Assembly: GCA_045837725.1 (NCBI GenBank)
Contig: JBEWZL010000304.1
Span: 1 to 64,000, forward strand
From: Vermamoeba vermiformis
Taxonomy: Eukaryota
Reading direction: 5' to 3'
Length of the DNA: 64,000 nt
Shown here one piece after another: positions 1 to 62,243 of the stretch. The notes below the pieces were generated by a model. It saw nothing but the letters and a program-made list of their open reading frames with translations, was not told the origin of the DNA and made no database searches. Each line of letters starts with the position of its first letter. Position 1 is the first letter of the stretch. A program made the position numbers and the translations under genes.

Positions 1-2790
1 ATACCCCCGCGGGGATTGAATTAATCCCCAGCTTAACGTGCGCAGAGCGCAATTTATCGGTCGGATTCCATATTTGTGCAAAATGCATCAAACTGACCTC
101 GTTTTGGGTCAACCGAATCCCCAGCACTAAGTGCTGTCAATCGTTCGGATCCATCTCAGCTTGTACAATGACCCCTGCGGGGATTGGATTAATCCCCAGC
201 ATAACGTGCACGAAGTGCAAAATCAATTAACGACACTCAAAGTTTTTGAGCAAAGTATAATGTAAAGCACTTTTTAATTGGAATTACCCCCTGCGGGGAT
301 TGAACTAATCCCCAGCTTAATGTGCGCGGAGCACAATTTATCGGTCGGATTCCACGTTCGTGCAAAATGCATCAAACTGACCTTGTTTTGGATCGAATGA
401 ATCCCAGCACTAAGTGCTGTCAATTGTTCGGATCTATCTTGGCTTGTACAATGACCCCTGCGGGGATTGAATTAATCCCCAGCATAAAGTGCACGAAGTG
501 CAAAATCAATTAACGACACTCAAAGTTTTTGACTGAGCAACGTTGAATGTAAAGCACTTTTTAATTGGAATTACCCCCTGCGGGGATTGAACTAATCCCC
601 AGCTGAATGTGCGCGGAGCGCAACTATTCGGTCACGTTCTACATTAGAGTGAAACTTTTGATTAATCCCTTACAACGTGCAACAAATGATAGTCAAAATC
701 ATAATCTTGAGGATCAGACCCCTGCGGGGAATGCAGCCCCGGAACTACATGCACGTTCTTTTTGCTCGGCCTTTACTTAGCACTCAATAGCGTTCTTAAT
801 GCTCTTTTTCATTAGCTCCAACTACTTTCTTTATGCTCTTCTTATTTTAATTTTCATCATCAATTCACTTTTTTGTCATTAATTGATTCGCACCATATCA
901 TCATTGTCATGATAATCATCTTCATCATTACATTTTCATCATCATCATCATTAAAACTACCCAGTTTTTGTCATTTCTCCATGAACTACCCCCTGCGGGG
1001 AAAGCAGCCCCGTACTACAAGCGCGGTCTTTTCGTTCGGCTTTTACTTGCTCTCAGTACCGTTCTTTATGCTCTTCATTGTTAGCTCCAAGTACATTCTT
1101 TATGCTCTTTATCCGTTGATTTTCATCATCAATTCACTATTTTGTCATTCGCATACCATCATCATAAGGGTCCATTGTCATCATCACCATGATCCTCATC
1201 CTTATCATCATCATCATCCTCATCATCCTCATTGAATTAATTCAATTTTCATTCATTTTCATCTTAATTGACCCCCTGCGGGGAAAGCAGCCCCGGACTG
1301 CACGCGCGTTCTTTTTGTTCGGCATTTACTTGCTTTCAGTGCCATTCTTTATGCTCTTCGTTGTTAGCTCCAAGTACATTCTTTATGCTCTTGATTCGTT
1401 CAACCATATCATCATCATTGCCATGATCATCATCTTGTCTTCATCATCATCATCATCATCATCCTCAGGATGATCATCATCACTGCATCATCATTACATC
1501 ATCATCATCACCACTATCTACTAATTTCAATTTTCATTCATTTTCTTTAAAGTTACCCCCTGCGGGGATCGATCCCCAGAACTACATGAGCGTTCTTTTT
1601 CTTCGGCTTTTACTTGCTCTCAATGCCGTTCTTTATGCTCTTTTTTACGACACATCATCACATCATCATCATTATCATCATTCTCATATTCACGATCATC
1701 ATCATTGTCATCATCATCATATCATCTAATTTCAATTTTCATTCATTTTCTTTAAAGTTACCCCCTGCGGGGATCAATCCCCGGAACTGCACTAGCGTTC
1801 TTTTTGTTTGGCTTTTACTTTGCTCTCAATTCCGTTCTTAATGCTCTTTTTGCACGACATTGTCACATCATCTTATCATCCTTCTCATGATCATCATCAT
1901 CATCATCATAATCATCACCATCATTATCATCATTGTTATCATCATCAACTAATCTCAAATTTCACTGATTTTCTTCATAAGTTACCCCCTGCGGGGATTG
2001 ATCCCCGGAAAAGAGTGCGCGCGGAGTGCTATTAGATTCAAATATCGATCTTTATGCTCTTTTTTACACGCGAAACTGTAGGAATTACGCGCGTTAGCGC
2101 GATTATCCCAAGCTTAAAGCGTATGTGTACCAGTTAACTGTCATTGATGCCATCATAATGATGATCATCATCATCACCATCATCATTATTTAATTCATTC
2201 ATTTTTCATCACTTTTTCAAACCTACCCCCTGCGGGGATTGATCCCCAGCAAGAACGTGCGTGGAGCGCAATTAGATTCAAATAGCGTTCTTTATGCTCT
2301 TCTTTACGCGTGAAAATGATGGATTTATGCGTGTTAGCGCGATTATCCCAAGCTTAAAGCGTACGTGTACAAGAGAACCAGCATGGATACCATCGTAATG
2401 ATGATCATCATCATCATCGTCATCATCATCATCATCATCTACTAATTTCACTTTTCATTGACTTTCTTCATAAGTTACCCCCTGCGGGGATTGATCCCCA
2501 GAAAGAACGCGCGCGGAGCGCGACTAGATCCAAATCGCGTTCTTTATGCTCTTTTTCACGTGAAAACGATGGGATTTACGCGCGTTAGCGCGACTGTCCC
2601 GGAATTAAAGCACGTGTTGCTGTTACTTTACATTGATTAATATACCAATGATGAAGAATGACATCCTTCATTCTTCCATTCATTTAAAGCATTCGTGTAC
2701 CAATTAACATTCATTGTTAGAATTAACAATGAAATTTCATTCTGTTATCCTCATCATTTCATTCATTTTTATTTGGGCCCCGCGGGGATC
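1..2790. repeat. Complex satellite: 14 copies of a CCCC(T/C)GCGGGGA core at 115-300 bp spacing, with (CAT)n microsatellite tracts
   Basis: Core motif near 4, 172, 287, 455, 574, 719, 989, 1272, 1556, 1761, 1985, 2226, 2478 and 2778. Bases 1-570 form two near-identical ~283-bp units. Later units share TTCTTTATGCTCT and CAT-rich tracts. The array probably continues past the left edge. Confidence 0.9.
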
Positions 2791-2799
2791 TACGATGAA

Positions 2800-5420
2800 A
2801 TCAAACACGCTTCAACTCTAAAATATAAAGGAGTTAATAATTAATTAGATATAATAGAAAAGCGTAAATTAACTTACCTATTGAGAGCCGTACTTTTGTC
2901 AGCGATCCAAGATTAACGCGTAATCGGGTTAACTGAACAATAAAAGGTTATTAGAATTATCATTAAATAAGTTATATAATGTTTATTACTTACTTCAAGA
3001 GCCTTCAGAGCTCTTCAGCAAAACTTTAACGGATCGAGATGCGTCGGATCCCGATCCGAATTCTGTCACTCAAGGGTTGCTCTGACCCTTTTCGATCTAC
3101 AATAACGTTAGCAACGATCATTTAAACATATTTTTCCCTTACCTCGGTTCATCAGTTAGTACTGACAAAAATTTTAACGCGTTAGATCTCGCGCCACCAA
3201 ATCCACCAAAAATTCTATCCAACGGTTCTAATGAGAAATAAAGATGTTATCATCTTACAATAATAATACAAAATCAATTTTACTTACTTTTGACGCGATC
3301 GATGCGCGTCACTGAACTTTTGAGAGATCGAGTTGTTCTGTACGCGATCTCTGGCCCCAGCTTCGTGTCATCTCCTGAACGTAAAATTGTTATCAGTGAG
3401 TTATTATATCAATACTTAAGGGGGATCACTTACGTTTAAACCAATCGATGCCCCGCAAAGAAATTTTAACAGATCGAGACTCGTCGGATCTCGATCTCGT
3501 AATTGTTCCTCCGTTGTCGTCTTCGTTATTTCTAGTAATATAATGGGTTAGTATTAAGCAATATCTAACTGTAACCGCACTTACCGGGCTATTATGGGCG
3601 ATGTAACGAATCTGATAACGCGAGAAGATCGCGTTCAAGATCCGTTCTCGTTAACTATTAACACCTAAAATAATAGTGTTAGATTGTTAAACAATAATAA
3701 AATAAACGATTTGAACTACTTACGGTTGCTTCCTTATTGGGAATCGAGAGATCGGTTTCGCGCTCGATCTAAAACTCGCACCAAAGTTCTGACGTTCAAA
3801 TTACCTATTAAATAACGATTAATATATTATGTTAATTACAAAATAAACAGCAATTTAAATTTTACACGAGCACGAAGCTCGATCCGTATCTCGTAATTGT
3901 TTAAATTACAAGAGTAATTTCAAATTTTAAAATGACGCGTTCCATGCGTCTTATTGATTATTATTATTAATAAAAGATAACTTACCAATTATTCTGATGC
4001 GTCCAACGCATCCGATCTCGCCATCAAGTTGCCAAACCAACGAGCGAGCAGTGGTGATCGTCCCTGCAGCGGGACACGAACGGAAAAGGCCAGTATACCG
4101 CGAAACGACCATTGGTGGTCTGGATCTCGCGCATCGAAAGGGATTGGAACTTTCGATCGCGTTAGAAAATCGCGGCGAGTTTCTGTATTGAAAATTAATC
4201 ATTAATATAATGTACTATAATTAATAAAACGATATTCAACAAAAAATCGGGTTAAATTACGAGTACTAAGCTAGATCCGAATCCTGATGAATTTAGAACA
4301 AAAATTTAAAAATTGAATTTATGATATCTTGATATTACAATAGGTGGAACTATTGTACGAAAAATATTACCTTTAATAATCTCGGTCACTGCACCGAGAT
4401 TTGCACGACACTAGATCGCGTTCTGAGTGTCGCGCTGGAACGACGCTGAAAGTCGTTTGGCGCGTGTGTGCTGACAATAAATTAACAATCGAAATACCCA
4501 AACCGACCCTTGTGGTCGATCTGTCGCGAATCTTGGATTCGCACCTGTCAAATCTCTAAATAACTCGCGCTGAACGGCCGTCGTGGCCGTGGCGCGTAAC
4601 TATCTGCTGTTAATAAGCAATAATATAAATATAACGACCTTTGTGGTCGTTCTGTTGAATTACTGGTATTTAACAATTGTTTTTTTTCGACGTTATGGTC
4701 GAAAGTTAGAAAATAATAATGGAACCCGTGGGAGCACTGTTGTCGATTTTATAACGTACAAGAATGGTTTTTTTATTGCTTTAACCTATTCCTATTACAA
4801 TTTAAAGTTGCTCCTATGAGATTAGGTAAACTCGGACTTTGGCGGATCGAGACAGGCCACCATAAAAATTGCTGACGTGCTCTTATCTGAAGTAAAAACG
4901 ATATCAGTAAGTAATAGTACAAGTATTTAACGCGTTCTACTTACTTTTTGCGCAATCACTGCGCTCTGTCAACTTCTTATTGGATCGCTAGAGATCCGCA
5001 AGCCGATCCGGATTATTGTAAATTTTGGGTTGAAAATTTAAATTGAATGGAGGTTATCATAATATTGTAAATGATGCAAGGATATTTAAAATTAATTAAT
5101 AATAAGGTAATAATAATATTACCTTGATTTATCTCGGTCACTGCACCGAGATTCGCGCAAGTCTTGAACTCGCATTGTCTCGCGCTGGAACGATGCTGAT
5201 TATCGTTTGGCGCGTCTGTTGATTAAATGCATAATATCTAAATGGACAACCTTGTGGTCGATCTGTTGCATTGCTGATGCGAAAAACTCGTGCGAAGTTT
5301 TCGCATCAGCTCTTCATCCAAATAACTCGCGCTGGAACGGCTATGCTGCCGCGGCGCGGTACTTTCAGCTGTAATAACAATAAATAAATAAATCGACCCT
5401 TGTGGTCGATCTGTCTAAGT
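2800..5420 (-). ncRNA. Candidate multi-exon non-coding transcript (or decayed gene) with hairpin-rich exons
   Basis: Regular AT-rich minus-strand GT-AG introns at 2818-2877, 2933-2993, 3097-3142, 3228-3287, 3375-3433, 3532-3584, 3665-3723 and 3805-3865, several with CTAAC/CTAAT branch points. Exons 2994-3096, 3585-3664 and 3724-3804 have stops in all three frames. Boundaries are approximate. Confidence 0.45.
4300..5415. repeat. Diverged direct duplication (~4300-4655 vs ~5030-5415)
   Basis: Shared blocks in the same order: ATCTCGGTCACTGCACCGAGAT, TCGCGCTGGAACGA, CGTTTGGCGCGT, CCTTGTGGTCGATCTGT, AAATAACTCGCGCTG. Confidence 0.85.
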
Positions 5421-5639
5421 TCATCCAAACAAGTACCATAACAGCACAGTCGCGTGCGTAACGGTCACTTCCTTTTTAGTCATGCCACTGAAAACCGACA
5501 TGCATCGAGTGAAAACCGACACGCATGCGAGAGGCACGTGCTGCCAAAAATTGTTTTTGTGCTGGGATAAATCCTGGCACGGGAGACAAAAACGCACGAG
5601 CGACCGACTTCTCGCACAAATACTCACCAACACGATCAC

Positions 5640-6620
5640 CACAATGGTCGTGTAATTTATTTTAGTTATTTTTAATATTCTTGTAGATGCGCGGAGTTGA
5701 ACGCAGCGCAACTGCTTTCGTTACCTGGGTGGTGACGATCGGTCGGCTGTCTGCTGCCGGCTGTCTGTTGCTCAATGTGCTCGTACAGTGCGTATTGCAC
5801 GGAGGTGAGTTTCCCTAATTAAATATTAATTCTGCCGTTGGCTAAACTCACTGTTTCGTTTTACAGACGATCGGTCGTGGGTCATGCTTCATGCTTCGAG
5901 CTCACTGCTAGGTGCTTTGGCTAAACTCAAAGGGTGCATTTAGGGTGGTAGAGCAAAGTATGCAGCGTTCGGTAAGCAAAAAAAAATTTAAATCCGTATT
6001 TTCAGATGCGCGGCATCTAACATTCACCATTTGTGTAGGGCAGCTGACCCCAAGAACTGCATAGTACATATTAAAAAGAAACTTGGTGCGTGGTTAATGC
6101 CTTGCAACCGAGCCTCCAGCACTAGGTAAGCCAGTTCGAATTACATTTTTTTCGCACCGCTAACGATCTTCTAGTCCTACAAGCCATTACACCCTGCCAG
6201 GCACATTACGACCTGCGCGGTAAGTTTTTCGACATCGTCTCCTACTGGAGACGACCTCCTATGACTTTGATTTTTTTTTTACATCGTCTCCCGCTGGAGA
6301 CGACCTCTGTTGGACTTAGTTTTTTTTTGACATCGTCTCCCGCTGGAGACGACCTCCTACGACTTTGATTTTTTTACATCGTCTCCCACTGGAGACGACC
6401 TCTGTTGGACTTAGTTTTTTTTGACATCGTCTCCCGCTGGAGACGACCTTGCATGACTTCAATTTTTTCTCTAAGTTTACATCTTGATTTTTTTTTTTTA
6501 CTGTCTCTCAATGGAGACATCCTTTGTTCAAGTACTTTATTATTTTGAACTTGTTTTCTCCTAACTCTTTATATTCAGGCTTGTAAAATTGTAATGTATA
6601 GCTAATAAAGTTCTTTAACT
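5640..6620 (+). ncRNA. Candidate spliced transcript with only a 64-aa ORF (lncRNA or small peptide)
   Basis: Introns 5805-5866, 5972-6038, 6126-6174 and 6220-6578 have GTRAG donors, YAG acceptors and mostly CTAAC branch points. AATAAA at 6604-6609. The spliced ORF from ATG 5687 stops at 5943, upstream of three more introns. Confidence 0.45.
6231..6522. repeat. Tandem array of hairpin + oligo-T units (~48 bp period; 5 copies plus 1 degenerate)
   Basis: TCGTCTCC-N4-GGAGACGA stems near 6235, 6284, 6333, 6379 and 6427, each followed by a T-run. Degenerate copy near 6502. Confidence 0.9.
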
Positions 6621-6640
6621 ATTTATCCCTGTACATGTGT

Positions 6641-6910
6641 AGTGACTCTTGTTAGCACTCGGCGACTCTCGTTAGCGCTTGGCAACTCTGGTTAGAGCTC
6701 GGTGACTCTCGTTAGCGCTAGGCAACTCTTGTTAGCGCTTGGCGACTCTCGTTAGCGCTCGGCGACTCTCGTTAGCGCTCGGCGACTCTCGTTAGCGCTC
6801 GGCGACTCTCGTTAGCGCTTGGCGACTCTCGTTAGCGCTTGGCGACTCTTGTTATTGCTCAGCGACTCTTGCTAGGGCTAGGTGACTCTGCCAGAGCTGG
6901 CAACTCTAGC
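6641..6910. repeat. 20-bp minisatellite, consensus GGCGACTCTCGTTAGCGCTC, ~13 copies
   Basis: Exact 20-bp period from 6641. Central copies are perfect and terminal copies are decayed. Confidence 0.95.
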
Positions 6911-7638
6911 TAGCTCCTGGTGCCTGGTCCAAAAATTGGAGCAAAAGATACAAATTATCCTTGGTTTTATTGCTTTCAAAGTAGTTTTAAGGGCTAGCCC
7001 TGTTTGGCCAAGCCCTGTAGTATATATGAATTAATTAATAAAAATATTGCCAGTTTTAACTTACCCACAGCTGTAATTTTGCCTTTCTTGGCCCGCACCA
7101 AAGCATTCAGTGGTAGATCTCATGGGAGATGAAACTTGCTGTGTCTGCTCTACATAATTCAGCACAGTTGCATGGTGAAACCAGATGTCACAAAGTTCCA
7201 CATTGATTCATAATGTGCACTGCTTGCTCAGTGAGCTGATGGTGTGGCGGATGAGCCCTTCTTCTTCTTCTATTTCTTACTGCTGGAGCATGTTGAGGGA
7301 CATAAAAATGATGCATTGCTGCAGGACGGACAAATCCTGGCAAAAATTGTGGTGGGATGCTGTTAGGCATTGACTATGGTTGGTATGAATATAATAATAT
7401 GAATAGCCATTGTTTTGTTTATATATCTTTTGCTATTACTATTCACAGTACTGCTGGGAGATTGTGGCTGATTACGAAATTCGTTCCGTGAAAACCGGGT
7501 TCTAATGGATTGCTACAATATTCAAATAAACATTCAGAGTTTTCCACATTGATTTAACCTATTCATAAAACAAAAGTCTTTACTCTTAATACAATTATTG
7601 ATTGAGCTTAACATAACCCATTGGAACTCCCTAAAAGG

Positions 7639-10600
7639 CTAATCAGTATATTGCAAGTTCATTTTAAATGACCATACCACTGATTCAAAGCTGTTGTGTT
7701 GTTGCACTTTGCGCACAATCAGGAAAATTGCCATGGCAAGAACAAGAGCACCTGCTATGCAACCTAACACAATGCCCCAAATTTGACCTGAGCTCAGTAT
7801 TTCAGGCTCTGCAATCACTTCAACAAGTGGCTCTGCTACAGGCACAAATACAGGAGCAGCCACTGGAGTATCTGTTCAAAATTGTTTAGCAAGAAATCAT
7901 TTTGTGTAAATAAAACCACACCAGGACTACCAACAGTGGCGGTTATTTGCAGCGAGACTGTGATTTTGGCATCAGTAGGGTTTTGTACCAAGACGTGGAA
8001 CGTGTTGCTTCGCTCAATGGTATCGAAATTAAAAGAGCGGCTACAATAGCGAATTAATACTTGAACATACTAATGATCGAATTATTACCTTAATTGCGCA
8101 GCGCCGTTAGAAAACTCAGCTTGGCTAGGCTCGCCAAAGATTGAAGTGCCTTGAGTGATCGTAGCACCAAAGTTCGAAGGTGATTGCGAAGACAGACTAA
8201 GGTCAAAGCGAACGTTGTGATGTTCATCAGGGTAGTTAAAGGTAAAGAACATTTGTCCACGTCCTTCGAGTTCGATCGACGATGCAGTGCCCAAAACCAA
8301 ATTGCGCAGAGCTGAAAATAAGTCAGTCCGAGCACAACGAACGTAAGAGACATTGTACTACTCACGAGCAAATCCGGCAGTAATGGAGTACGACATTGTT
8401 TGAGTGGTGTGCCAGTTTCTGACGGCAATGTGCGCGAACCTGCCAACTGATTGCGCACGTGTCAATGAAGTAAATTGAGAGACCTGAGTGTTGTTGAGAA
8501 CAATTGAGTTGTCACCGTCGACCTTGGGTGGGATGAGCGGGAACTGGTCCATCTTGGAGACAACAGAAGACAGAACAACAGGACCAGTGTTGGAGAACCG
8601 AGTGTGCAGGATAAAGTCTTTGTCATTCGGGAACTGACTGGCGACTTCATCGAAAGCAATGTTGTAATAACGAAGAGTATCGGGGGCTAATTGATGGTCA
8701 AATTGTTGATTGTGTCGGATGTCGGTCTCCTCTGAATGGATGTATTAAAAACAAGTTGAAAAAAACAACTGACCTGCACGTACCAACGGAAGCAACGAAG
8801 AACTCAAAATTGTGGCTCGTAGAATCAGAACGCTCGCTTGCAAGAACACCTGTAGTGTAAGTTTGCAACCCATGAGGCAATTGTGAGAACGGAATGTAAA
8901 CGCCCATGTAGGTGGGCACAAACACTCCATTGATAGGATCGTCAGTGAAGTACACGCGTGACGAAGCAAAAGGAGAAATTAACGTAGGGTAAGTGTTTCC
9001 TGTCGAAACAACGAACGATAACTCTCGATTGCCAATGCCAATGTTGCCCGAGACGTAATTCACGAAGTATAGAGACACGAACAGACCACGTTGACTGTTG
9101 GTGGTTTCGAATTGAGTTCTGTAGTATTGCCAGTAGCCTGGAAGAATTCTACCGCTCACAAACTCGCCAACAGAAATATCAAAGCGATCTAATATGCGGT
9201 TAGCAACATATTTGGACCAAGCGCTAAACTTACTGAAAACAGCGGGACGAATCTGGAAGTCGTAATGATTGCCCGTATTCACAGAGGTAGCGTTAGCAAG
9301 CACGAACCACTTGCCGGATATTGGATCAACGGGAAGATCAAAGAACAGGTCGGCATTGGTTCCAGAGGTCATACCGTCGTTGATGAGTTCAGTCGGCAGT
9401 CCTTGACGCCTGATTGCGACAAAAACAGTTTCGTCGGTAATTTGTTCAGTTGTAGCCATTGTGACTTTCATTACTGTTGCGTTTCTGTCAATAAGGTCAA
9501 TAGCCATCCCTACGAATTCGAGACACCACACGTACCTTGCAGGGTCAAGAATCTCGATAAAATGAGGTTGAAGATCGAATTGGAAGATCATTGAAGTTGT
9601 GAAATCGTTGGCGGTGTACGGAGTGAATCGGAACAACGGCGCAGAGGCAATTTCTAAAGGTCCGATTAGGCGCAAATATTCTTTTTTTTATGCAGACTTG
9701 CTTACCATGCAATCTAGTTGTAACTGATATATCCAAAGTGACAGGTGAAGTGTAGTTGAAGTAAACTCCGAATAAAACGTCCCTCCAGAACGTGGCATTT
9801 CGAAGCTGTCTGCCGCCGATCACCAACTGAGGCGAAGTCTGTTTACAGCGTTATTTAATATCTTGTTCTATTTAGTTTGCTTACCCAATCGCTTTGAACA
9901 GGGAATGTTTGATCGAGCTGATTAGCGTCGCTGACATCAGGCATAACTTTGTTGTTGAAGAATGGCACCACAACGATGTTGGAAGGCGTGGTCAAAGTGG
10001 TAGGATTGAGCACTTGGAACTCGAAGTACAATAAGGCTTCCTTCCATACGCTAGGAACTTGGTCGATATCGAGGTATGGCGCTTCAAGAAGAGTCCATTG
10101 ATTCGCGCCAACTGTCACTTGATCCAGCACATCCAGTTGCAACGTACCACGATCTATAAATTTTCAGCTATCAGCGACACACATTAATTTTTCTACTGTG
10201 CTTACCAATATAGAAAAGGTTAAGCTTAACGCTGGTGGATACATTGGCCGCGTTGAAGAAGCTGAAAAAGAAGTAATCGCCAGGGAACGACTCGCGCATC
10301 AGAACGAGTGTTTGTGTGTTATCAACGTAGCTAAAATCATTTTGAATAACATCTCCGACCAAGGGCGAATTATCAGGGCTGGGATACCAAGATAAAGACG
10401 CAACAGCTGCAAAATAAAAAATAAATAATTATTTAAAAATTACTAATAAATCTAAAAATTCGGCTATTGTGGCTAAAATACTTACGAAAGCAAATGCCTT
10501 CTTGACGCAAAAATCCGGATGGGCAGTCGGTGCACTCGTAAGTTCCAGGCAAATTTGTGCAGTTCAAACCGTCGCGGCATCGAGCGGTCTCGCATTCATT

Positions 10601-11635: not shown

Positions 11636-11841
11636 TTTGGCGTGACTTGTGGTCGTCTTCAGCGAAGAAAATGGAATTTAAAATGAAAAAGAAACAAATT
11701 TTAATCACGAACGTCAGCGAACGTCAAATGTCACCCAAGTACGAAAAAAACTCAAATGTTGCGCTAACCGCAAAAATTACGTGCACCACGAGCACAAGGA
11801 CGAAAGGACATTTATAAAAAACAAACAAATTTCCTGTTAGT

Positions 11842-14800
11842 TTAAGTATTGCAGCCGTTGGCGTAGACATCAAAGATGCGAGAACCACCGTCGCTGGCTG
11901 CAGGACCAAAACTATATTCGATGTAACGGACAGGGATAGGGTAGACCATGGAACGGTCGTTCAAAGCGTCGTAGATGTCGGTTTGACCGTCTTGCGTACC
12001 CCAAGTGAACCATTCGCTGTAATTGGCACCATCAGTAGAGACACGAGCGCGAGCGAAGTCCCAAACACCACGAGGTTGCTCGCTGGTGGAGATGTGAACA
12101 CCAATCGAAGAAATGTAGCGAATTTGGCCGAGATCAATGATGACCTTTTGGTCCTGATCTCCGTCGCCAAAAATGAATCCTTGCTCACCGTCGCCCCAAA
12201 CGTACTGAAAAACCTGTTAGAAACTGTGCCAATCTAGAGCCGAATGTTGTACTTACGTTAGGGGTTCGGATCAAGTTGAGAACGGCATCATAAGGAGCGC
12301 CGGCGAGGATAGAAGAGTAAGAAACTACTCTAGCACCATAGCCGTCAACAGCGTAGTTGGTACGAGTGTAGCAGCTAGTTCCAACAACCCAATTCTTGGC
12401 CATGTAGTCAAGGATGGCGGTATGCATGTCGCTACGACGGATAGGATCGGTAATTAGCTCAGAGATTTCCTTGAGCTCGTAGTCAATCATGACGGGGTTG
12501 TCGGTGATAGTGTTGGCCCATTGATCAGCTTGCTCGATTTCAAAGAGTTCTATTCCCAGTATTAGCACAATCCAATGACACTAAGGTTAAAATCTTACCA
12601 GGAGTACCACCAATGAACTTGATCTCCTTGTTTGAGTTCGCCTTGAAAGTAATGTCAAGCTTGCTTTCGTAGTCCGCCTTGGCGAAGGTCAACGAGAGCG
12701 AGATCAAGAAACCGAAGGTGAAGCCAGTTTGCTTCTGCACGAATGTTTGGGTGTTGTCGAGTAACACGGAAGTATCAATATCGAGAGTCATGGATATTCT
12801 ACCGCCAAAAACACCACGAGAAATAAAGTGCGTGCCAAAGTAAGTGAACACTTGTTCGTAAGCGGGACGGGTGTTGGGGCTGTAAGGAGGCAAGCTGTTC
12901 AAGAAATCAGCGGCAAACGAAGAGAGTTGGAAAGTTCCAGGCATGACACGAGCTAAACGAGAAATTAGATAAAGCACTTAAGTGTAAAAGAACGTACTGT
13001 TGAAGAATCTGTAGAAGCGATCGTGATTGACGAAGCGGCTAGTGGTTTTGCTGAGACGTTGCTTGACAGTCATAGTGGTCTTGCTGCTGCCAAAGAAGCC
13101 GATGGACCATCCCTTCTTCTTCTTCGTCATTTCCAAGTATTGGAAGACGTTCTCGGCATAACGACTCTCTTCAGTAACGTCAATGGAAGGATTGGCAGAG
13201 ACGAAAAGCTCATCAGGAACATCCCATGAGTCACCATTGTACGGGTTTTGGAATTTGCGGCCTCTGGTGTAGCGGAACTCAAACAAGGGCAAGCGGAACT
13301 CCTCGCTCACTAAAGGGTGTTAGTAAACGTACGACTCGTAGCCACAGTGGCACTTACAGCCATCAAAACCGGATTCCAAGAAGGAAACCAAAGGATTGGC
13401 TCCTTGAACAGCACGGGTACGAGGCATGGTGAAAGGAACTTGGACAATCTTCTCACCAAGGGAGACCAAACGATCTTCCATAACTACGTAGACGGACTGA
13501 AAGATGTTAGAATAACTCTTTCGAAAGGAGATTGCAAATGACTTACGATATGGTGAACATAGCCAGTCAAATTGAAAGGAATATTGAAGCCGTGATTTCC
13601 AGACAAGCCCAACATTTGGTTAACTTCAGGACGAGAAATATCGGTAGCAACACGAATGTACTCGACACCGTCAACGTGCACGGAGACCATGGCGGCCTCG
13701 GTAGGTCTTTCGATGTTCAAGGCCCAACCGACAACACCAGAAGCGGAGATTTGTTCCAACTAGAAATGGATGTAAGGCACAGCCAATATTATGTAATCAC
13801 CCTTACCTGACCGCGAGGGTACTTGTTCGAGATTTCGAAAGAGCCCATCAAAGGTCTTCTGCGCCCGTTAATGGTAGAAACGGCGGTAACGGTGTGAGTA
13901 CCATAAGCAGTGACGTTCAACGGAATACGGAAAGCGTGAGCTCCGGTGATGTTGTGAACACGGTTGACTACAGGACTGGCTAGGTTAGCAAGGCCAGAGG
14001 CGTACAATTGACCATTGACGAGAACGTCGATGGGAACGTCGTAGTTTATGTTGTTGCGATCGTAAGCCCAACCCTCGGCGCTGAAGAGAGTTAGTAATTT
14101 GTGATTGCACCACCTTGAATACTTACAATTGAGTAGTGACACCAGTGAGGCGACCAGGAGGAGCGAAGACACAGACACGACGTCTATCGCTCTCAGTCCA
14201 AGCCTTGTTGAAACCAATGAAACGGGCACGCACCCAATAGCAACCTTCTTGGTCGTCTCTAAAATTCAATGGGACAACAAAGCCGTGACGACCAGTGCTT
14301 TGAATGCGCTCATTCAACTCAGGTCTAGCAGAACAAATGAATAACATTAACTCTAAATTAGATTATTTGTAGTCTAATTACCTTTCAATGGTTGTAGTTC
14401 CTTGGCCAACCATCAACTTGCCAGCGTAGATTTGAACGGTGACAGGGCGATCGAAATCCAAAAGGTTGATTGCCCAGCCTCTGACTTGAGTCTCCGAGGC
14501 ACGCTCCATGAAGCCAACTGATTGATCCAAATCGGCTTCAGGACCGTTGGCAAAGATGGAGAAGATCTTTGAACCAGCACCGGAGACCGAGTTAGATCCG
14601 GCAGCACCAAAGTTGGCGCGAACATAACGAGCTGCGCGAGGCTTGTCCATGTTAAGAGCGTTCAAACGTTGGGCTAAATGATGTTAATATCAATCGTGCA
14701 GGGTCTTTTAATACTTACTGATGTTAGTAACATTGTCACCTCGCACACCAACGCGGCCCCAAAGCTCCCAGTTGACGTTGTCCAATGACGTGTAGAACTC

Positions 14801-17074
14801 GATGGCATCCCAAACAGCGCCGTCTTCACCAGGTAAAGCAACTCTGGCGCCAACGGAAGTCAAGTAACGGCGTTCGGCCAAATCAATGACAACATGTTGG
14901 TCATCGTCCTGTTCGGTATTAGTAAGGAACGACTGACCTTAAGACTTACATTAGCAGCAAACATGAAGTAGGTGTCGGGGTGGGCGGGTTGAATCAACTC
15001 AGCCTCGTCACGTCGTTCTTCGCAAACAATCTTCTTGTAGTAGACATACGTAGTAACTTCGCGGCAGACTTTAGCAACAGAGCTCGATGAAATAACAGCA
15101 GCACCGCGGTTGACATCAGCGAAGTTGACGGCATAAGCTGACAAGTTGAAGGAAGCCAAGAGATCGGAATTTGGCAAAATAATGTGATCAGGTACATCAC
15201 GGACTAAATAATCGTCAGTACTCTACTCAGTAATAAGATGACAAACTTACATCTTTCTTCGATGGCTCTCTTCAAGCAAGGTTGTCTAGCACGAATCATA
15301 GCGGCTTCAACGTCGCGCTTTTCGAACTCTTCCAAACCTCTCTTCAGGTATTCACCGCAGTCATCACGAGGGCGTGGGTAGACTCTACGACGAATTTCTT
15401 CGGCGTACTCAAACATAGCCTTCTCGACGTCAGCCTTGAGCACCAAGTCTTCAATGAAATCAGTCATTGGTGTTACTCTAATATGAACTTTTAGCACATA
15501 ATGACATTTTACTAAGGCCACTTACCTCAACGTAACCATGACGGGGTTCGAAGTGATGGTTCCCTTCCATTGTTGCCAATCGGAAGGAGCAAGACCTTCA
15601 GTGCGACCTCCTTCGTATGTGAATCGCTCCATGGAGTTGCTAGGCACGAAGTTGGGGTCAAGGTAGCTTTCGTAGAGAGCTTTTTGACCAGGGTCAGTTG
15701 CGGTCATCCAGTTCCACCAGTATCTACACCGGAGTTAGTTTAAGATCCATCAACCCAACTGAACTGCTTACTGAAGTTGTTGAGTGATCCAGTCAGGATT
15801 ACGAGCACCCATAGTGCTCATAGACAACAAGGATTCGTGCTTCATGCTACCACCGAACAAGGCGCCGATAACTACGTGAGTACCGTAAGTTTGGAAGAAG
15901 TTCTTGTAGATGGGAAGGGTCTAAATGAATGCGTTAGAGACTTTTCCTTAGAGTGAAGATGTGAACTTACGCTGTCGTCAAAGCGAGGCAAAGCAGCAAG
16001 TTCTAAGGAGTTAGATTAGTATTTGGAGCGTTGAAACTTAAACAAACTTACCGTCCTTCACTTGTTGGCTGATGGTGAGGTACTTGGGAGGCAACATGTT
16101 CATGGTGTAGTAAGTGTAAGTACGCTCGACGGTAGTCCATTGAGAAGCGCTCGTGGACATGTAGCCGTTGATGCGCATTGTGTTGAAATTCTTTGAGAAG
16201 ACACCTAACAAGCAGATGAATACCAGTCGGTAGACACTATTGTGTTAATTACGCACCATTGCTCCAAATGCTGACAGAGATACCAATCTTGCTGGCTTTA
16301 GCCTTTTGGTATTCGTAGATAGAGGCGAATGATTGAACATCCTCACTCATTGTTGCGGATGGAGAGTTCAAGATGAAAACCTCATCAGCGACAGCGTAGG
16401 TCTGTCTGTCATAGGGGCTGGTGTATGTACGACCATTCTACGGGACAAGTTACGAGGTTAATATCTCCCGTGATGAGGTTTGAGTTGGGTACTCACCTTG
16501 TTGTTCAACACGACCACCGGAGCTCGGTTCTCACCGTAGACCCAATCATAGCCAGAGCCCATGAGTTGGATACCTAAGGAGTATCATTTGTGTTACTACG
16601 GGTAAAACAGGATCAAACCCGAGTCACGATTGCAATTCCATCTAGTTTCTATAAGGTCATAGTTACCTGGTACCCATGAGTACTGCTCAACAGCATCAGT
16701 AGATCGCTTTTCAGCATCAAAGTTAATCTGTGTGTTGCCGTGGTTGTATTCCCCTGTCGCAGCCCTACGGACGGATGTCAATTAACGTAAATAAAATTTA
16801 TGCTTTTGAGTATTTATTTACTTACTTGCGTTCGTTATCCTTAAGTATTCTGTCTATTTCGGCTTGCTTTTGAGTCGCAAACTCGGCATCCAAGCGCTCC
16901 CAAATATTGACTTGACCAAAAACTCCCTAAATAATTGAGCTGAATAAGTTGCGAAACACGGCGAGTAATAAATTAAAGAAGGACAATTAATAAAAATTAA
17001 CCAATGGAATTACATACGTTTGGCGTCAGAATAACGAGCAAAGCCCAGAGCACAAGGATCCGCTTGAACTGCAT
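11842..17074 (-). CDS. Secreted protein with two MACPF (perforin-like) domains, two discoidin/F5-8-like domains and three GWA beta-repeats (multi-exon)
   Basis: Continuous spliced frame from MQFKRILVLWALLVILTPNGVFGQ to ...DVYANGCNT*. MACPF signatures YKNFFQTYGTHVVIGALFGG and YEQVFTYFGTHFISRGVFGG. Discoidin-like motifs QHVVIDLAERRY...SLDNVNWE...AARYVR and QKVIIDLGQIRY...STDGANYS...PVRYIE. Confidence 0.88.
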
Positions 17075-17365
17075 TTTCGATGCAACCGATGTGATGTGCT
17101 GTTGCAATGTAAATTCAATTTGATTTAAATTTACTCGGCAGAAAATAGAAAAAACTGTGCGTGACAGACTCTTGTCCACCCATCACCGTCAATCTCGCAG
17201 GTTGACAGCGCAAAAATTAAAAATTAAATCACAAGGGACTGGCTCATCCTCCAATCAAATCACGAGAAAGTCTGGGTAACGTGTTTGACGTACGTCATTC
17301 GCTCGTCTGCAGTTTTGTTGTTTGAGAATTTTTGTTCTTTTAAGCTCTCTTATTTATCCACAACA
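17075..17365. promoter_or_regulatory. Putative bidirectional promoter between the two MACPF genes
   Basis: Only 291 bp separate the divergent ATGs. Contains a perfect 12-bp palindrome TGACGTACGTCA (17286-17297) and CCAAT near 17251. Confidence 0.5.
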
Positions 17366-19041
17366 ATGGCTCTTGGTAACTCGGTTATATTCGTAGCCGT
17401 TTTGCTCTGCGCGAGTTGTTTCGCGCAATTCGATGATAACCCTTCTGGTTCTCGTCGCTTGCCTGGTAAGCCATTAAAGTCAAGGATGCGACGGAAATGA
17501 GATTAATCGCTAACGAACTGTCAATTTCGGATTTGAATAGTTTTTTTAAACGTAATTAATAGTCGTTAGGAGTTAATAATGTAAGCACAAAATATGACAT
17601 TAACTATTCGCTTAATTAGGTTCTGATTTAATTGGTGTCGGATTTGACATCCAAACTGCCGATGTAATGCTTCCCGTAGTCGACTTGACTTGGAGAGGCA
17701 GAGAATTTGATAGTCCTTACGACGGAAAAACTTACGAGATTCCTTATGAGGTCGATACTATCTCTACACCAGATCTCTTCCGTTCCAACTCGTCTGAGGT
17801 CAGTTCCAGCAATTTATACCTTAATTAGATCGTGCAATTGATCAACACTCGCGTGCAGGTTTATACGACAGTGGAGCAGTTCACTACTAGCCGAGCTAGA
17901 GCCACTGGCGTCAGTCTCAGCTTGGGCAACATGTTCGCCTTTACTGCCACCAAGGAGACTCAACAAATTCGGTAAGCATCACTGCTGTTTAAGTAAATCG
18001 TTAATTCGAGCTTGAGAGTCCATTTAACGAGGAGATTCGATCTTCCAAAATCGAAATTATTGCGAAACAATGATCTTGCCGCGCCTTATTGCGCTAATAA
18101 TTGCTTTATATTTTTCACCTATTTTCTTAAATTCTTTTGATGCGACTTACTCGAATCTGACGCGATCTTTTTGTAGCCAAACCCTGGATCAGAAAACGCA
18201 CCGCTTTGGTGTCGTCGAGCAGTCTCACATTTTCTTCCGTCTTCTCTTGAGTCCTCCTTTTGCTTTGAGTTTGAGCTACGACGCGAATGAATTTTTGAAG
18301 AGTTTGCCTCCCTACAGCCAAGCCACCCGCGATCAATGGAACGACTTTTTCAGCTTCTTTGGTACTCACTACGTACGAGCTGTTGACCTCGGCGGTCGTG
18401 CTCGCATGGATATCTTGCACGATATCAAGCGCTGGATGAAGAACGACACGGACTACGTCAAGACTCAATTTGGCATCAAGTTCAGGTACGAGTAATGATA
18501 AATAAGTGTTTAAATGACTAATTGTTCACAGTCTCGGCACAACTCCCGCCATTGATTTCCCTTGGACTGAAGGTCCTGCTAACGACCCCACGGCCGGAAT
18601 TCCTATCGGTGTACCAATCCCAACGAGTACGTCCATTAACATGTGCACGCTGTCTTTAACCTGTTCTGTTCAGCTGTTCGAGGACAAGGTGGCAAGAAGC
18701 GAGACTTGCAACTTCAACCCAATCTCAAGGCCAGATCCCAGTTGGCTAAGGAGAAGCGCGGCTTGCCCATCTCTTTCACCTTCTATCAAGTTCGCGAAGA
18801 GTTGAAGAACCGCTTGGAAATTGATCTCTTGGAGAATGTCAAGAATACTATCAAATTGCAGGGAGGCAAGCCTACTCAGTACGCTCCTGAGATGTGGCGC
18901 GATTGGGTGCTCACCGTCCCTGCCAACCCAACCATGATTGAGTACCAATTGGCGCCTATCTCTGACCTCGTCAAGGACCCCAACCTCCAAGCGCAAATGG
19001 CTTCCGCGATTGCTGACAAGTTGAGCACTCCTCGCCAGTAA
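17366..19041 (+). CDS. Secreted single-domain MACPF protein (multi-exon)
   Basis: Signal peptide MALGNSVIFVAVLLCASCFA. N-terminal LPGSDLIGVGFD motif. Signature WNDFFSFFGTHYVRAVDLGG. C-terminal GG...WRDWVLTVPANPTMIEYQLAPISDLV. Confidence 0.9.
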
Positions 19042-19189
19042 TTTGTACTCTTAATAATAAAGGTATTCTACCTATTTTGTCATATCAGGGCAAAAGGAGG
19101 AGATAGCCCTGCTCAAGAAAAACACGTTTGAACTCTGCTAGCCCGCGCTGGAGTTTGCGAGCCAGAAGAGGCCAAAAGCAAAAAAAGAA

Positions 19190-22313: not shown

Positions 22314-24040
22314 ATGTCCGTATTTAAAAAGATATTTGGAAAAGACAAAGAAAAAAAAGACGCCAATTTTAGTTTGGGAACGCCTACTGGCTTTAAGCAC
22401 GTAGGTCATGTGGGCTACGATCCCGATAAGGGTAGTTTAGAGGTACGTACCCGTGAATCACTAACTTTAATAAAAGGGGTCTCAATACTTTAATAGGGAA
22501 GCAATTTACCCGAGGAATTGTCGACGGCATTAAACGCCGCTGGAGGACACACTACGACAAACACAAGGTACCAATACTCGTGCTTTGAATTTGAAAGAAA
22601 GCATGACTCATCTTTATTCGCTTTTTAAGCTACAACGCACCGGCGCCAACCAACCCGGGCCCTCCACCACCCCCTCCAAATAATCCTTACCGCCCTGCAG
22701 TAAGTTCATTCATGTTAAACTCCGTGCCCGACGCACTTATTGATAAAACTAGCCACCACCTCCTCAACAAGATAATTATGGTGATTACAGCGGTCAACAG
22801 GATTACAGCGGTCAACAGCAAGGTTACGATCAAGGTTACGCTAATCAGCCTCCTCCTCAAGGTGCATTCAAATTACCGCCTCCCGGTGTGCGTTCAGCGC
22901 AACCATCGGCGTCATATGGTTCAGCTCCACCACCCCCACCTGTTACAAGAGCAAGTGCTCCTCCCCCTCCAATGGCGAAGACGGCTGGAGGCCCACCTCC
23001 ACCACCTCCCATGCCCAAAGCAGGAGGTCCTCCGCCCCCACCGCCACCTGCATTCAAAGCAGCCGAGACGCATGAGGATTATGACACACCTGCTCCCAGC
23101 GGTGAGCGCAATGCGCTCTTGTCGTCAATTTCAAATTTTAAGAAGGGCGGATTGAAAAAAGCACAAACAAACGATCGCTCGTCACCTATCTTAACAAAGG
23201 ACAAAGGAAGCAGCGGAGGCGGTGGCGCTCCTGGTGGCAGACGTAAGAATCATACTACACTTTTAGCACGTAATAACTGTTGTTAGCGATGATGATGGGA
23301 ATGCCAATGATGATGCCACCCAAGCAAAATACAACGCCGTTGAAGAGCAGTGCCGGCGCACCGTCTCCTCGAGCGACAGCACAGCCTACACCTCCGCCAC
23401 AAATGATGACGTCACCGCGAACCCCAAACCCGCCACCACCTAAAATGCCCAAAGTAGCCGCACCTCCTAAACGTACTACATATTTCTTCTTGAATAGCAC
23501 TAATAGCTAATTGGTTTCATAGAGCAAGGCACGCCACCAATGCCACCGCAACAACGCGCGAGTCAAGCACCGCAGCAATCTTACGGTGCTCCACCTCCAC
23601 TTCCTCAAAAGACAGCTGGGGGTCCTCCTCCACCTCCGCCAACTCCAAAAACCGCCGGAGGTCCACCCCCACCTCCACCTATGCCAAAGGCTGGAGGTCC
23701 GCCTCCACCTCCACCACCAGCTTTCAAAGCTGTTGAGCAACCCGAAGAGTACGATGCCCCGCCTCCAAGCGGTGAACGAAATGCCCTATTATCATCGATT
23801 GCAAATTTCAAAAAAGGTGCGTTCTAGCGTTGCACATAGCAGAAATTTTTAGCTAACACGCGCACAGGTGGCTTGAAGAAAGCACAAACGAATGATCGGT
23901 CAGCACCGATAGTTTCAAAAGAAAAAAGCGGAGGAGGCCCACCCTCTGGAGGAGCACGTCCTGGTCCACCTGGTGGCGGCGGTGGCTTGATGGGTGATTT
24001 AGCTGCCGCAATGTCTAAGCGAGGTTCGCCAAGGAAGTAA
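22314..24040 (+). CDS. CRIB + polyproline + 2x WH2 actin-regulatory protein (WASP/WIP-like, multi-exon)
   Basis: CRIB LGTPTGFKHVGHVGYD. Polyproline tracts. Two WIP/verprolin-type WH2 motifs ERNALLSSIxNFKKGGLKKAQTNDRS. Confidence 0.85.
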
Positions 24041-60291: not shown

Positions 60292-62019
60292 TTAAGAACA
60301 ATAGCGTAGATGAGGCATCTTGCTCGTTAAAATCTCGCATTCTGATCGCGTATAACCAAGACCACGAATGTCTTGCAAGGTTGTCAAAGTCGTCAAATGT
60401 CGACCGAAGAAAACAGCGTCTTCAGCTTTAGAAACGCGCAAAAACGTCAAATGATGCAATGCTGTTAATAATAGCACGTTTTCTTCGCTTCTCCAATTGT
60501 CAAACGACAGACTCCGCAACGTTGTTATCTTCACTAAGCAGTCCATCAATTTTTCACTATTGTTCGTGCCGCGATTGGAAAATGAGGTTAATTTTAAATT
60601 GTCAAACTTATATTCAAAATCTTCGTTATTAACTTGAAAATTGATTGCTAAAGTGAGCGCTGACAACTTTGTTAATTTTGATAAATTACTGACGATGTTG
60701 GCCAGCGGTGCTAATGACGGAATTGACAAACGTTCTAAATTTGTTAATTGGTCTAAATTTAGCTGCTTGTAATCTCGAGGAATTTTTCTTCCGTGGAAAT
60801 CGAGGATCTTCAACTTGGTCAAAATATTGATAGTGCTGATATTATGTGCTAAATATGCGTCTAATGATGTCAAATTGGTAAGGTGCCGCAAATAATTCAA
60901 ATCATCGGTGACTCCACGTAATTCTAACGATTCTAATTGTTCGAATCGGATCAAGCATTGAACGTCAAAGTTTCCAACTAATGACTTTAAATTTGTCGAT
61001 AATAGATTGACTAGTAATCTATCTTCACTTTTATCGCGGATATTATGCGGTGTTGAATCATTGATTTCAAACTTTTGGAGATCTGTCAATGCTGTCAAAA
61101 ATTCAAATCGTTTGTACGTTGCATTTGGCGGCCAATACATGCACAATTCTCGTAACTTCTTTAACCTCGAAAATTGCATTAAATGATCCACAGGAATTTT
61201 GTCGCAGAGGATTTGCAAGTAAGTTAGATTTGTGTTCGTGTGAAATGGTTGCGTTTCATCTGCCAAGAATTTTATTGACTCTAGCGATGTTAATTTGTCC
61301 AAATGGATGTCTGTAATTTCTGTATCAAAACACTTGTATCTGAGGACTTTCAAATTGCAAAGCTGTTTGAATTTTTCGACAGATTCGTCTGTTGAAAATA
61401 ATTGAATCGGCCTTTCTACTCTTAGATATAGCTTGGTTAACTTGCTAGGGTTCTGTAATTGAGTGAGTGGATCGATGCTCAATTCGCCAGAGTGAGTAAT
61501 CCTCAAGCACTCTAGATGTAGTGTCCCTTTCAGAGTTTGAGCGAGATCTTTGGTTCTAGCGCTTAAAGCTAATTTTCGAATTTTAGAGTACTTAGCAATA
61601 AGCTCTGGAGGAGGATGCTGCCATCTAAGAAACTCCCACTCCTCGATATTGGTCAGAGTCGTTAACTTCATCCATTCTTCAAATCTGAGGTCTTCGTCCG
61701 AGAGTCTTTCTTTGAATATAAATGACCTTAGATTTGTTAGCATTGATATTGCTGAAACTACGTCTGTGGCTGGCATACCAAGTTTGGACTTGGCGAACGA
61801 AAGTGAAATTAGATGTGGGACCTTTGATAAATGCTCTGTAATGCTGAAAAAATTGTTGTCATTCGCTAAAAATATTCTAAAATTATCATAGTGAATTATG
61901 TTGAACCATTCTTTGTTTGCTAAACGAAGAATTCGTTTCGATCTTGCATCCAAAAACGTCGTAATCAACTGCCATAGCTCTAAGGGAATACAACCAAATA
62001 TTCCTCTTTCTTTATCCAT
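60292..62019 (-). CDS. F-box/leucine-rich repeat protein, intronless (575 aa)
   Basis: F-box-like IPLELWQLITTFLD...LRLANKEW, then many LxxLxxLxxLxL repeats. Confidence 0.88.
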   Translation of the reverse strand: MDKERGIFGCIPLELWQLITTFLDARSKRILRLANKEWFNIIHYDNFRIFLANDNNFFSITEHLSKVPHLISLSFAKSKLGMPATDVVSAISMLTNLRSFIFKERLSDEDLRFEEWMKLTTLTNIEEWEFLRWQHPPPELIAKYSKIRKLALSARTKDLAQTLKGTLHLECLRITHSGELSIDPLTQLQNPSKLTKLYLRVERPIQLFSTDESVEKFKQLCNLKVLRYKCFDTEITDIHLDKLTSLESIKFLADETQPFHTNTNLTYLQILCDKIPVDHLMQFSRLKKLRELCMYWPPNATYKRFEFLTALTDLQKFEINDSTPHNIRDKSEDRLLVNLLSTNLKSLVGNFDVQCLIRFEQLESLELRGVTDDLNYLRHLTNLTSLDAYLAHNISTINILTKLKILDFHGRKIPRDYKQLNLDQLTNLERLSIPSLAPLANIVSNLSKLTKLSALTLAINFQVNNEDFEYKFDNLKLTSFSNRGTNNSEKLMDCLVKITTLRSLSFDNWRSEENVLLLTALHHLTFLRVSKAEDAVFFGRHLTTLTTLQDIRGLGYTRSECEILTSKMPHLRYCS

Positions 62020-62243
62020 AATTAATTAATTATGATGGATTTTTTCTCGCACGTGCTGTTCTAAACAATCAAAAATAGAAAATGCTCCTAAAATCTATCG
62101 GAAGTGGTTGGTCATAGCTAATTAATTATCTGCCAGTACAATGACTAACGTATACTGTAAGTATAGCAATGATAGGTTCAATCAAGAAGCGATGCGAACG
62201 TTCCGTGTGGATGCGTTTATTTCTGATAGCGCCGCAAGAAAGC

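Follow-up and report, generated by a model that had tools for sequence, protein, structure and literature searches.

The locus at 2800-5420 raises the question of what is preserved in a stretch of DNA that has the introns of a gene and no continuous reading frame. It lies in the window analysed here, the first 64 kb of contig C304 in a eukaryotic assembly of 43.3 Mb and 309 contigs. An earlier note described it as a spliced, non-coding unit with hairpins in its exons, and proposed that selection acts on structure and splicing rather than on protein.

In the window's ordinary genes, introns measure some 45-60 nt (median 52 nt over 36 training introns), begin with a GTAAG donor and carry a CTAAC branch site. 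The unit at 2800-5420, every feature of which lies on the minus strand, contains the eight well-formed introns that had been claimed for it, all short and of the form GTAAG...YAG. Alignments of paralogues added two long introns (4370-4183 and 3985-3805), bringing the intron-like stretches on that strand to ten, and a donor without a partner at 5122. The absence of a continuous open reading frame was also borne out, with 9-19 stops per frame in the spliced unit of 1114 nt. The region consists of one whole unit, B (4655-2775), and a second unit, A, that is truncated and rearranged (5416-about 4670). The features of the window copy are these:

1-2774, minus strand: distal tandem array, downstream of the unit, with units of about 205-290 bp, a palindromic CCCCTGCGGGG core and ATC runs
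2775-2817, minus strand: last exon fragment, B10, joined to the array at a CCCCGCGGGG palindrome
2818-2877, minus strand: intron of 60 nt, short GTAAG...YAG
2878-2932, minus strand: exon B9, shorter than B9 of the nearest paralogues
2933-2993, minus strand: intron of 61 nt, short GTAAG...YAG
2994-3096, minus strand: exon B8, with an 11-bp stem at 3030-3058; homologue of exon B5
3097-3142, minus strand: intron of 46 nt, short GTAAG...YAG
3143-3227, minus strand: exon B7
3228-3287, minus strand: intron of 60 nt, short GTAAG...YAG
3288-3374, minus strand: exon B6, with two stems, one of them at 3291-3311
3375-3433, minus strand: intron of 59 nt, short GTAAG...YAG
3434-3531, minus strand: exon B5, with a stem at 3471-3497
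3532-3584, minus strand: intron of 53 nt, GT and AG conserved in 24 of 24 other copies
3585-3664, minus strand: exon B4, with a two-part stem and an in-frame TGA at 3637-3635
3665-3723, minus strand: intron of 59 nt, short GTAAG...YAG
3724-3804, minus strand: exon B3
3805-3985, minus strand: long intron of 181 nt, with a 5-bp hairpin that is nearly invariant (paired in 120 of 124 cells)
3986-4182, minus strand: exon B2, 197 nt, with several stems, including 3996-4012 and 4133-4157
4183-4370, minus strand: long intron of 188 nt, with a related internal hairpin that is degenerate in the window copy
4371-4655, minus strand: 5' block of unit B, made of two subunits in tandem, about 130-155 nt each, then a stem at 4378-4401
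4656-5122, minus strand: body of unit A, truncated and rearranged, with the donor at 5122, an intron at 4944-4887 and one more exon
5123-5416, minus strand: 5' block of unit A, made of two hairpin subunits in tandem and including a variable 13-bp stem at 5273-5310
5440-5630, no strand assigned: conserved block between head-to-head units, a candidate bidirectional promoter, with motifs at 5472-5460 and 5578-5559
5633-6224, plus strand: divergent partner unit, with an inverted copy of the head hairpin at its start and donors at 5805, 5972 and 6126
6225-6470, no strand assigned: 49-bp tandem array with a palindromic core, the inner boundary of the composite element in several copies

At the position of B10, other copies run on into more exons. 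Each 5' subunit of unit B is headed by a hairpin of the GACC-ACAAG-GGTC type, and in the body of unit A half of the first long intron is joined to an exon end. Across 2800-4655, exon plus intron recurs with a period of about 140-150 nt, which resembles the unspliced 5' subunits and is near nucleosome spacing. A 20-bp tandem array of 12 copies lies just inward of the 49-bp array, at 6644-6889. Further into the window are several intron-rich genes with MACPF domains (Pfam), on both strands of 11840-19050, one of which (about 11840-14900) extends into repeated domains without a Pfam match. A proline-rich, WASP-like gene with WH2 motifs and an internal duplication lies at 22600-23900, less than 25 kb from the end, and 60292-62025 holds an ORF of 577 codons without introns, F-box/leucine-rich-repeat-like, in a genome that is otherwise intron-rich.

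The proposal that selection acts on splicing is supported by conservation of the donors well above that of control GT dinucleotides. In splice-site alignments collected by overall similarity, from single-sequence nhmmer searches, 216 of 221 rows retain the donor GT, and control GTs are retained in 610 of 1167 cases in exon flanks (52%) and 324 of 920 in introns (35%). Identity over the donor 5-mer is 0.86-1.0 in nine of the ten introns and 0.67 in the remaining one, against a mean of 0.37 in intron interiors. The acceptor AG is kept exactly in 182 of 222 rows and within 2 nt in 209 of 222; the control figure, 47-60%, was counted without tolerance. The splice donors are under selection.

The wider context lay beyond the view of the earlier note: the unit belongs to a family that is subtelomeric, present in many copies and telomere-directed, in which an upstream block is shared and a divergent partner unit occurs, and this family is a real, selected feature. 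It is present on at least 46 contigs. Searches with the unit region, in which 40 of 85 candidates were scored, gave 124 matches spread over 34 contigs, most of the long ones at 70-88% identity, and the head hairpin, with 107 exact matches against none for its control, gained 12 further contigs. The family sample comprised 55 stretches, each of up to 10 kb. Among the 28 contigs longer than 80 kb, the unit lies no more than 45 kb from a contig end on 27, and its splice-site strand faces the nearer end on 26, orientation being read from splice signals and not from stranded RNA. On contig C8 the unit is followed by the same tandem array as in window 1-2774, and this array joins a TTAGGG telomere directly; C50 and C231 likewise end in TTAGGG, downstream of a copy. 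These three contigs alone reach a true telomere; most of the others break inside the repeat, so their copies are taken to be telomeric in position. A purely centromeric role is unlikely, since C260 has units at both ends.

Units form head-to-tail chains of up to about 30 exons (C162), and exon modules are reused in differing orders among copies. In class 1 copies, the window's included, the block of about 200 bp at 5440-5630 separates the unit from its inverted plus-strand partner. One motif of this block has 18 matches in the genome against one control match. The partner unit, in which donors are conserved and indels are free, ends in the 49-bp array and, in about a dozen copies, forms part of one composite element with the unit. 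Outside the genome, the head-hairpin motif was found on no viral contig and on two metagenome contigs with just the 20-mer, which were judged to be chance matches.

Several further observations concern the contig ends. A tandem array of the window 1-2774 type sits between units on C101 and C3. The same short sequence precedes internal telomeric-like repeats at L023:7430-7470 and L050:2680-2740, suggesting another element that ends at telomeric seeds, and L050:2740-4309 is a distinct palindrome-rich segment of 1.4 kb, with the true telomere on one side and an internal telomeric tract on the other. Near-identical copies occur on different contigs (L007/L008, L018/L019 and L052/L053), and are either very recent end-to-end duplications or assembly duplicates. 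Retrotransposon reverse-transcriptase ORFs stand directly downstream of units in L021 (C260:38546-39028) and L022 (C190:26364-26669).

The explanation that we favour, with a little better than an even chance of being right, is a subtelomeric family of spliced, telomere-directed lncRNA units that act in cis on the chromatin of chromosome ends and spread by recombination. The window copy would most likely make a telomere-associated lncRNA, a candidate whose orientation is read from its splice signals. RNA polymerase II would start in the conserved block at 5440-5630, the candidate promoter, firing both ways, and transcription would read outward, crossing 10-30 short exons on its way to the distal array. 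Either the spliced RNA or the act of co-transcriptional splicing may be the useful product. Its putative action in cis would be that of a scaffold: proteins bound to the short palindromic cores would set the chromatin of chromosome ends, a role modelled on proposals for lncRNA-TARE and subTERRA. Ectopic recombination between ends would spread copies and swap exon modules, and many copies are therefore probably dead. Observation establishes where the units lie and which way they point, the selection on donors and the loss of constraint on coding; promoter activity, RNA location and function we infer.

RNA bearing on this explanation came from three runs chosen by species label, from one study and at most two samples, of each of which about 46-48% was read. 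Reads were placed on 2445-6220 at 88% likeness, giving 42, 33 and 55 in the three runs (130 in total), nearly all partial. This is a very low level, about 40 in 13 million, from few haplotypes. In these runs there was no read with at least 99% identity to the window copy, no read from the partner unit or 2445-2948, and no junction-spanning read of the kind that the earlier note had looked to for confirmation. The reads run in both directions, so they do not show the strand of transcription. RNA depth is zero in two bins within the long introns (4209-4334 and 3831-3956), into which simulated genomic reads from paralogues fall in 9-27% of cases; the empty bins are indirect support for splicing in relatives, weakened by the few haplotypes and uncertain strain divergence. 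None of the six loose-end motifs taken from the reads is matched over its full length in the sampled family loci, and two of them are absent genome-wide at up to 3 mismatches, which points to reads from another strain or from unassembled copies. One loose end has, by eye, a different perfect 6-bp stem at the position of B6. The low-level RNA comes from diverged relatives of the window copy.

Every stem listed by the earlier note is in the sequence, as are the AACGACC/GGTCGTT and ATCGACC/GGTCGAT pair and the differing hairpins at 4526-4542 and 5273-5310. The hairpins do occur in exons, but because they also occur in the two long introns and the unspliced 5' repeats they are not exon-specific. 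Folding against dinucleotide shuffles places hairpin density above chance (29 tiles, mean z -1.46, 34% below -2), with control tiles at mean z 0.03 (n=49) and 0.22 (n=48) and the eight short introns at z -0.48 to 1.38. Among 252 exon calls in the family, 150 drawn at random from those with GATC or CGCG have a mean z of -0.97, compared with -0.18 for third-order Markov sequences. These two words exceed expectation from base composition 3.5-fold and 8-fold, respectively. The variable 5' segment retains a hairpin across its different lengths (61 segments; z -1.74 sense, -1.99 antisense), and sense and antisense folding differ only at p 0.067. Stems were called with a strand-symmetric finder, as a consensus fold without G-U pairs gave almost no structure.

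The covariation that had been reported between paralogous stems is weak. Of 150 stem pairs, 2 pass a tree-based test that follows R-scape in design and the remaining pairs do not; the clearer of the two swaps A-U for G-C (56 and 23 sequences). Double changes on the same branch occur at 2.5 times expectation for true pairs and 1.5-2.3 times for slid pairs. Pairing is restored by 29 of 55 such double changes, 23 of the 29 being double transitions, mostly GC to AT. Broken pairs become G-U and A-C about equally often (166 vs 149 events; 162 vs 148 in a second count). In most families, change is about 2-3 times rarer at stem sites than elsewhere, a difference that is partly circular because the stems were selected for conservation. 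Given the weak covariation, the similar slid controls and the lack of a sense-strand G-U bias, selection on RNA structure is not established; of the reading originally proposed, selection on splicing and the lack of present selection on protein are the supported parts. The palindromes may act as RNA stems in those copies that are live, may be DNA or protein sites, or may in part have arisen through arm-to-arm copying.

Rfam gave no match at the gathering score in window 1-9000 (best E 0.48, not credible) and none in five 10-kb loci. For hairpins other than those of the two long introns, a snoRNA or miRNA host was rejected, there being no C/D or H/ACA match and stems of just 5-13 bp. Each of the two long introns (3805-3985 and 4183-4370) has a small hairpin; the two hairpins are related and strongly conserved, and are candidates for an intronic small RNA or an element of splicing.

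The alternative that survives best, though we consider it unlikely, is a decayed or hypervariable family of serine/arginine-rich proteins with intact copies hidden in unassembled chromosome ends, in which Arg-Ser and Gly-Ser codons would produce the GATC words and self-complementary stretches. The earlier note had seen the exons at 3143-3531 join in frame and had kept a decayed gene as a caveat. The run is longer than that, 116 codons over five exons (3634 to 3069), without an ATG, and the caveat proves stronger than its author thought. The B4-B6 tree was built from 17 copies out of 23 hits, with duplicate, mis-split and other-exon-type rows left out, and its parsimony root has about 0.4 stops in phase over 88 codons, compared with 5.4 and 5.6 in the other frames. 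B4-B6 is still open and in frame in 2 of the 17 copies, and one frame of B2 is open in 9 of 31 copies. Over nine exon families the in-phase path meets 5 stops against 16 and 25, for which P is 0.008 under random phases, too small a value because the families are partly homologous. The longest spliced paths average 144 codons compared with 121 in shuffles, but fall below the 246-511 codons of real window genes in the same test.

Changes since the B4-B6 root, however, are neutral. Synonymous changes number 29.9 on internal branches against 38.3 expected and 55.2 on tips against 54.7, and nonsense changes 6.8 against 5.8 and 11.6 against 8.6. Across 13 exon families the synonymous share is that expected under neutrality, whichever of the six frames is read, and 66 of 331 distinct exon indels are multiples of three. 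Indels, synonymous share and stop gain all agree with the original view that there is no present selection on protein. The donors are near-invariant in the family, unlike the expectation for dead pseudogenes; the open paths read homologous exons (B5 and B8) and homologous 5' subunits in different frames; and an RNA loose end is, by eye, 2 nt shorter than the window between two B6 anchors. All 39 genome hits of the B2 translation are on family-carrying contigs, and a profile search of 1.84 billion proteins gave four short matches, all to unrelated repeat proteins. Four exon translations had no Pfam match, and no separate intact coding paralogue was found. Decay by CpG methylation was rejected (CpG transitions 0.032 vs 0.030; CpG o/e 1.82). 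A coding origin is nonetheless plausible because the reconstructed B4-B6 ancestor is nearly stop-free in phase, and the chances are about even that the exon chain descends from a lost protein-coding gene.

Also improbable is a mobile, non-autonomous module of chromosome ends that would attach at a telomeric seed where an end has broken or shortened, by Y'-like DNA recombination or by terminon-like reverse transcription of the opposite strand; the palindromes would then be DNA or protein-binding sites, and splicing would benefit the element and not the host. Class 2 copies, which have extra hairpin exons and introns upstream of the head repeats, start abruptly at 1-3 TTAGGG repeats after eight mutually unrelated flanks, hinting at such a module. 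The head-to-tail chains point the same way, double-stranded DNA sites would accord with the stems' lack of strand bias, and an antisense template would explain why introns are kept in every copy. The window copy, however, is of the promoter class, without a telomeric seed, and the strong conservation of donors requires transcription that heads for the telomere. There is no reverse transcriptase or helicase within the element, its family regions containing no unspliced ORF of at least 300 codons (RVT_1 has 55 matches elsewhere in the genome), and no Rfam match, and a search of both strands of 42 family regions gave no hammerhead core, the one candidate being unrelated and in a flank.

Slightly more doubtful is a mobile non-coding end module that arose from a fossil gene, its exon-plus-intron units of about 145 nt having been duplicated and shuffled and the module added to new ends at short telomeric seeds, with its dense, perfect splice sites and its palindromic cores as the functional parts. 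If true, the module would mark the end as transcribed self or recruit telomere factors, and would be a telomere-maintenance or end-healing element without protein or ribozyme. Least probable is a selectively neutral subtelomeric satellite, its hairpins made by arm-to-arm templated copying and palindromic word bias and its conservation by gene conversion: the weak, strand-symmetric covariation, the double transitions behind most pair-restoring changes and the closeness of slid controls to true pairs would fit it, but gene conversion would not pick out the first bases of each intron, real exons fold below third-order Markov sequences, and the variable 5' segment keeps its hairpin despite changes in length.

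Subtelomeric lncRNAs have been described in a few model lineages, and the majority show poor conservation even from one end to the next. Searches of open-access papers turned up no account of an intron-dense, exon-shuffled subtelomeric family, although an organism-specific paper could escape such a search. In the present family, a single genome holds dozens of paralogues with 70-88% identity, whose donors are fixed while the reading frame decays, and this makes two questions testable: splicing as the selected function of an lncRNA, and the change from coding to non-coding. The seed-bounded copies suggest a route for recapping chromosome ends. Yeast Y' elements are likewise tandem units with short internal telomeric tracts at their boundaries; they encode a helicase, whereas the unit family has no long ORF.

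Xist is derived from Lnx3. In other lncRNAs from lost coding genes, such as JPX, exon structure outlasts coding constraint, as outlined in PMC5577775; the loci in that account are single-copy, mammalian and have identifiable ancestors, whereas the unit family is multi-copy and no ancestral protein was found. Terminons, or telomeric Penelope-like elements, form head-to-tail chains at ends and meet the host flank at a short stretch of telomeric sequence, in the description given by PMC6431247. The unit chains are similar, and a telomeric stretch at the host junction is found in class 2 copies only, not in the window copy. Unlike terminons as that source portrays them (PMC6431247), the family lacks a hammerhead motif, its element carries no reverse transcriptase, and its spliced strand runs outward.

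The Sultan/Spacer arrangement of Chlamydomonas, as presented in PMC8287924, combines a telomere-adjacent tandem array with a promoter block common to ends and spliced, putatively non-coding transcripts with a conserved donor. The unit family resembles this layout in its array, shared block and conserved donor. By the same account (PMC8287924), Spacer transcripts head toward the centromere and their similarity is confined to the first exon; the unit family, in contrast, uses both directions, with the main unit outward, and has at least ten homologous, shuffled exons. Its telomere-directed subtelomeric orientation is like that of TERRA and subTERRA in the summary of PMC7374410; for the unit, any read-through into telomeric repeats would be putative.

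The lncRNA-TARE loci of Plasmodium falciparum are reported in PMC7374410 as homologous non-coding loci of a few kb at 22 of 28 chromosome ends, directed toward the telomere. The unit family likewise has homologous, telomere-directed loci at many ends, in a subtelomere of ordered repeat blocks like that depicted there (PMC7374410), and differs from lncRNA-TARE as described in that paper in its dense spliceosomal introns and per-exon hairpins. A sequence relation is not expected, and expression of the unit family is barely shown. The known system that the unit family would appear to work most like is Plasmodium lncRNA-TARE.
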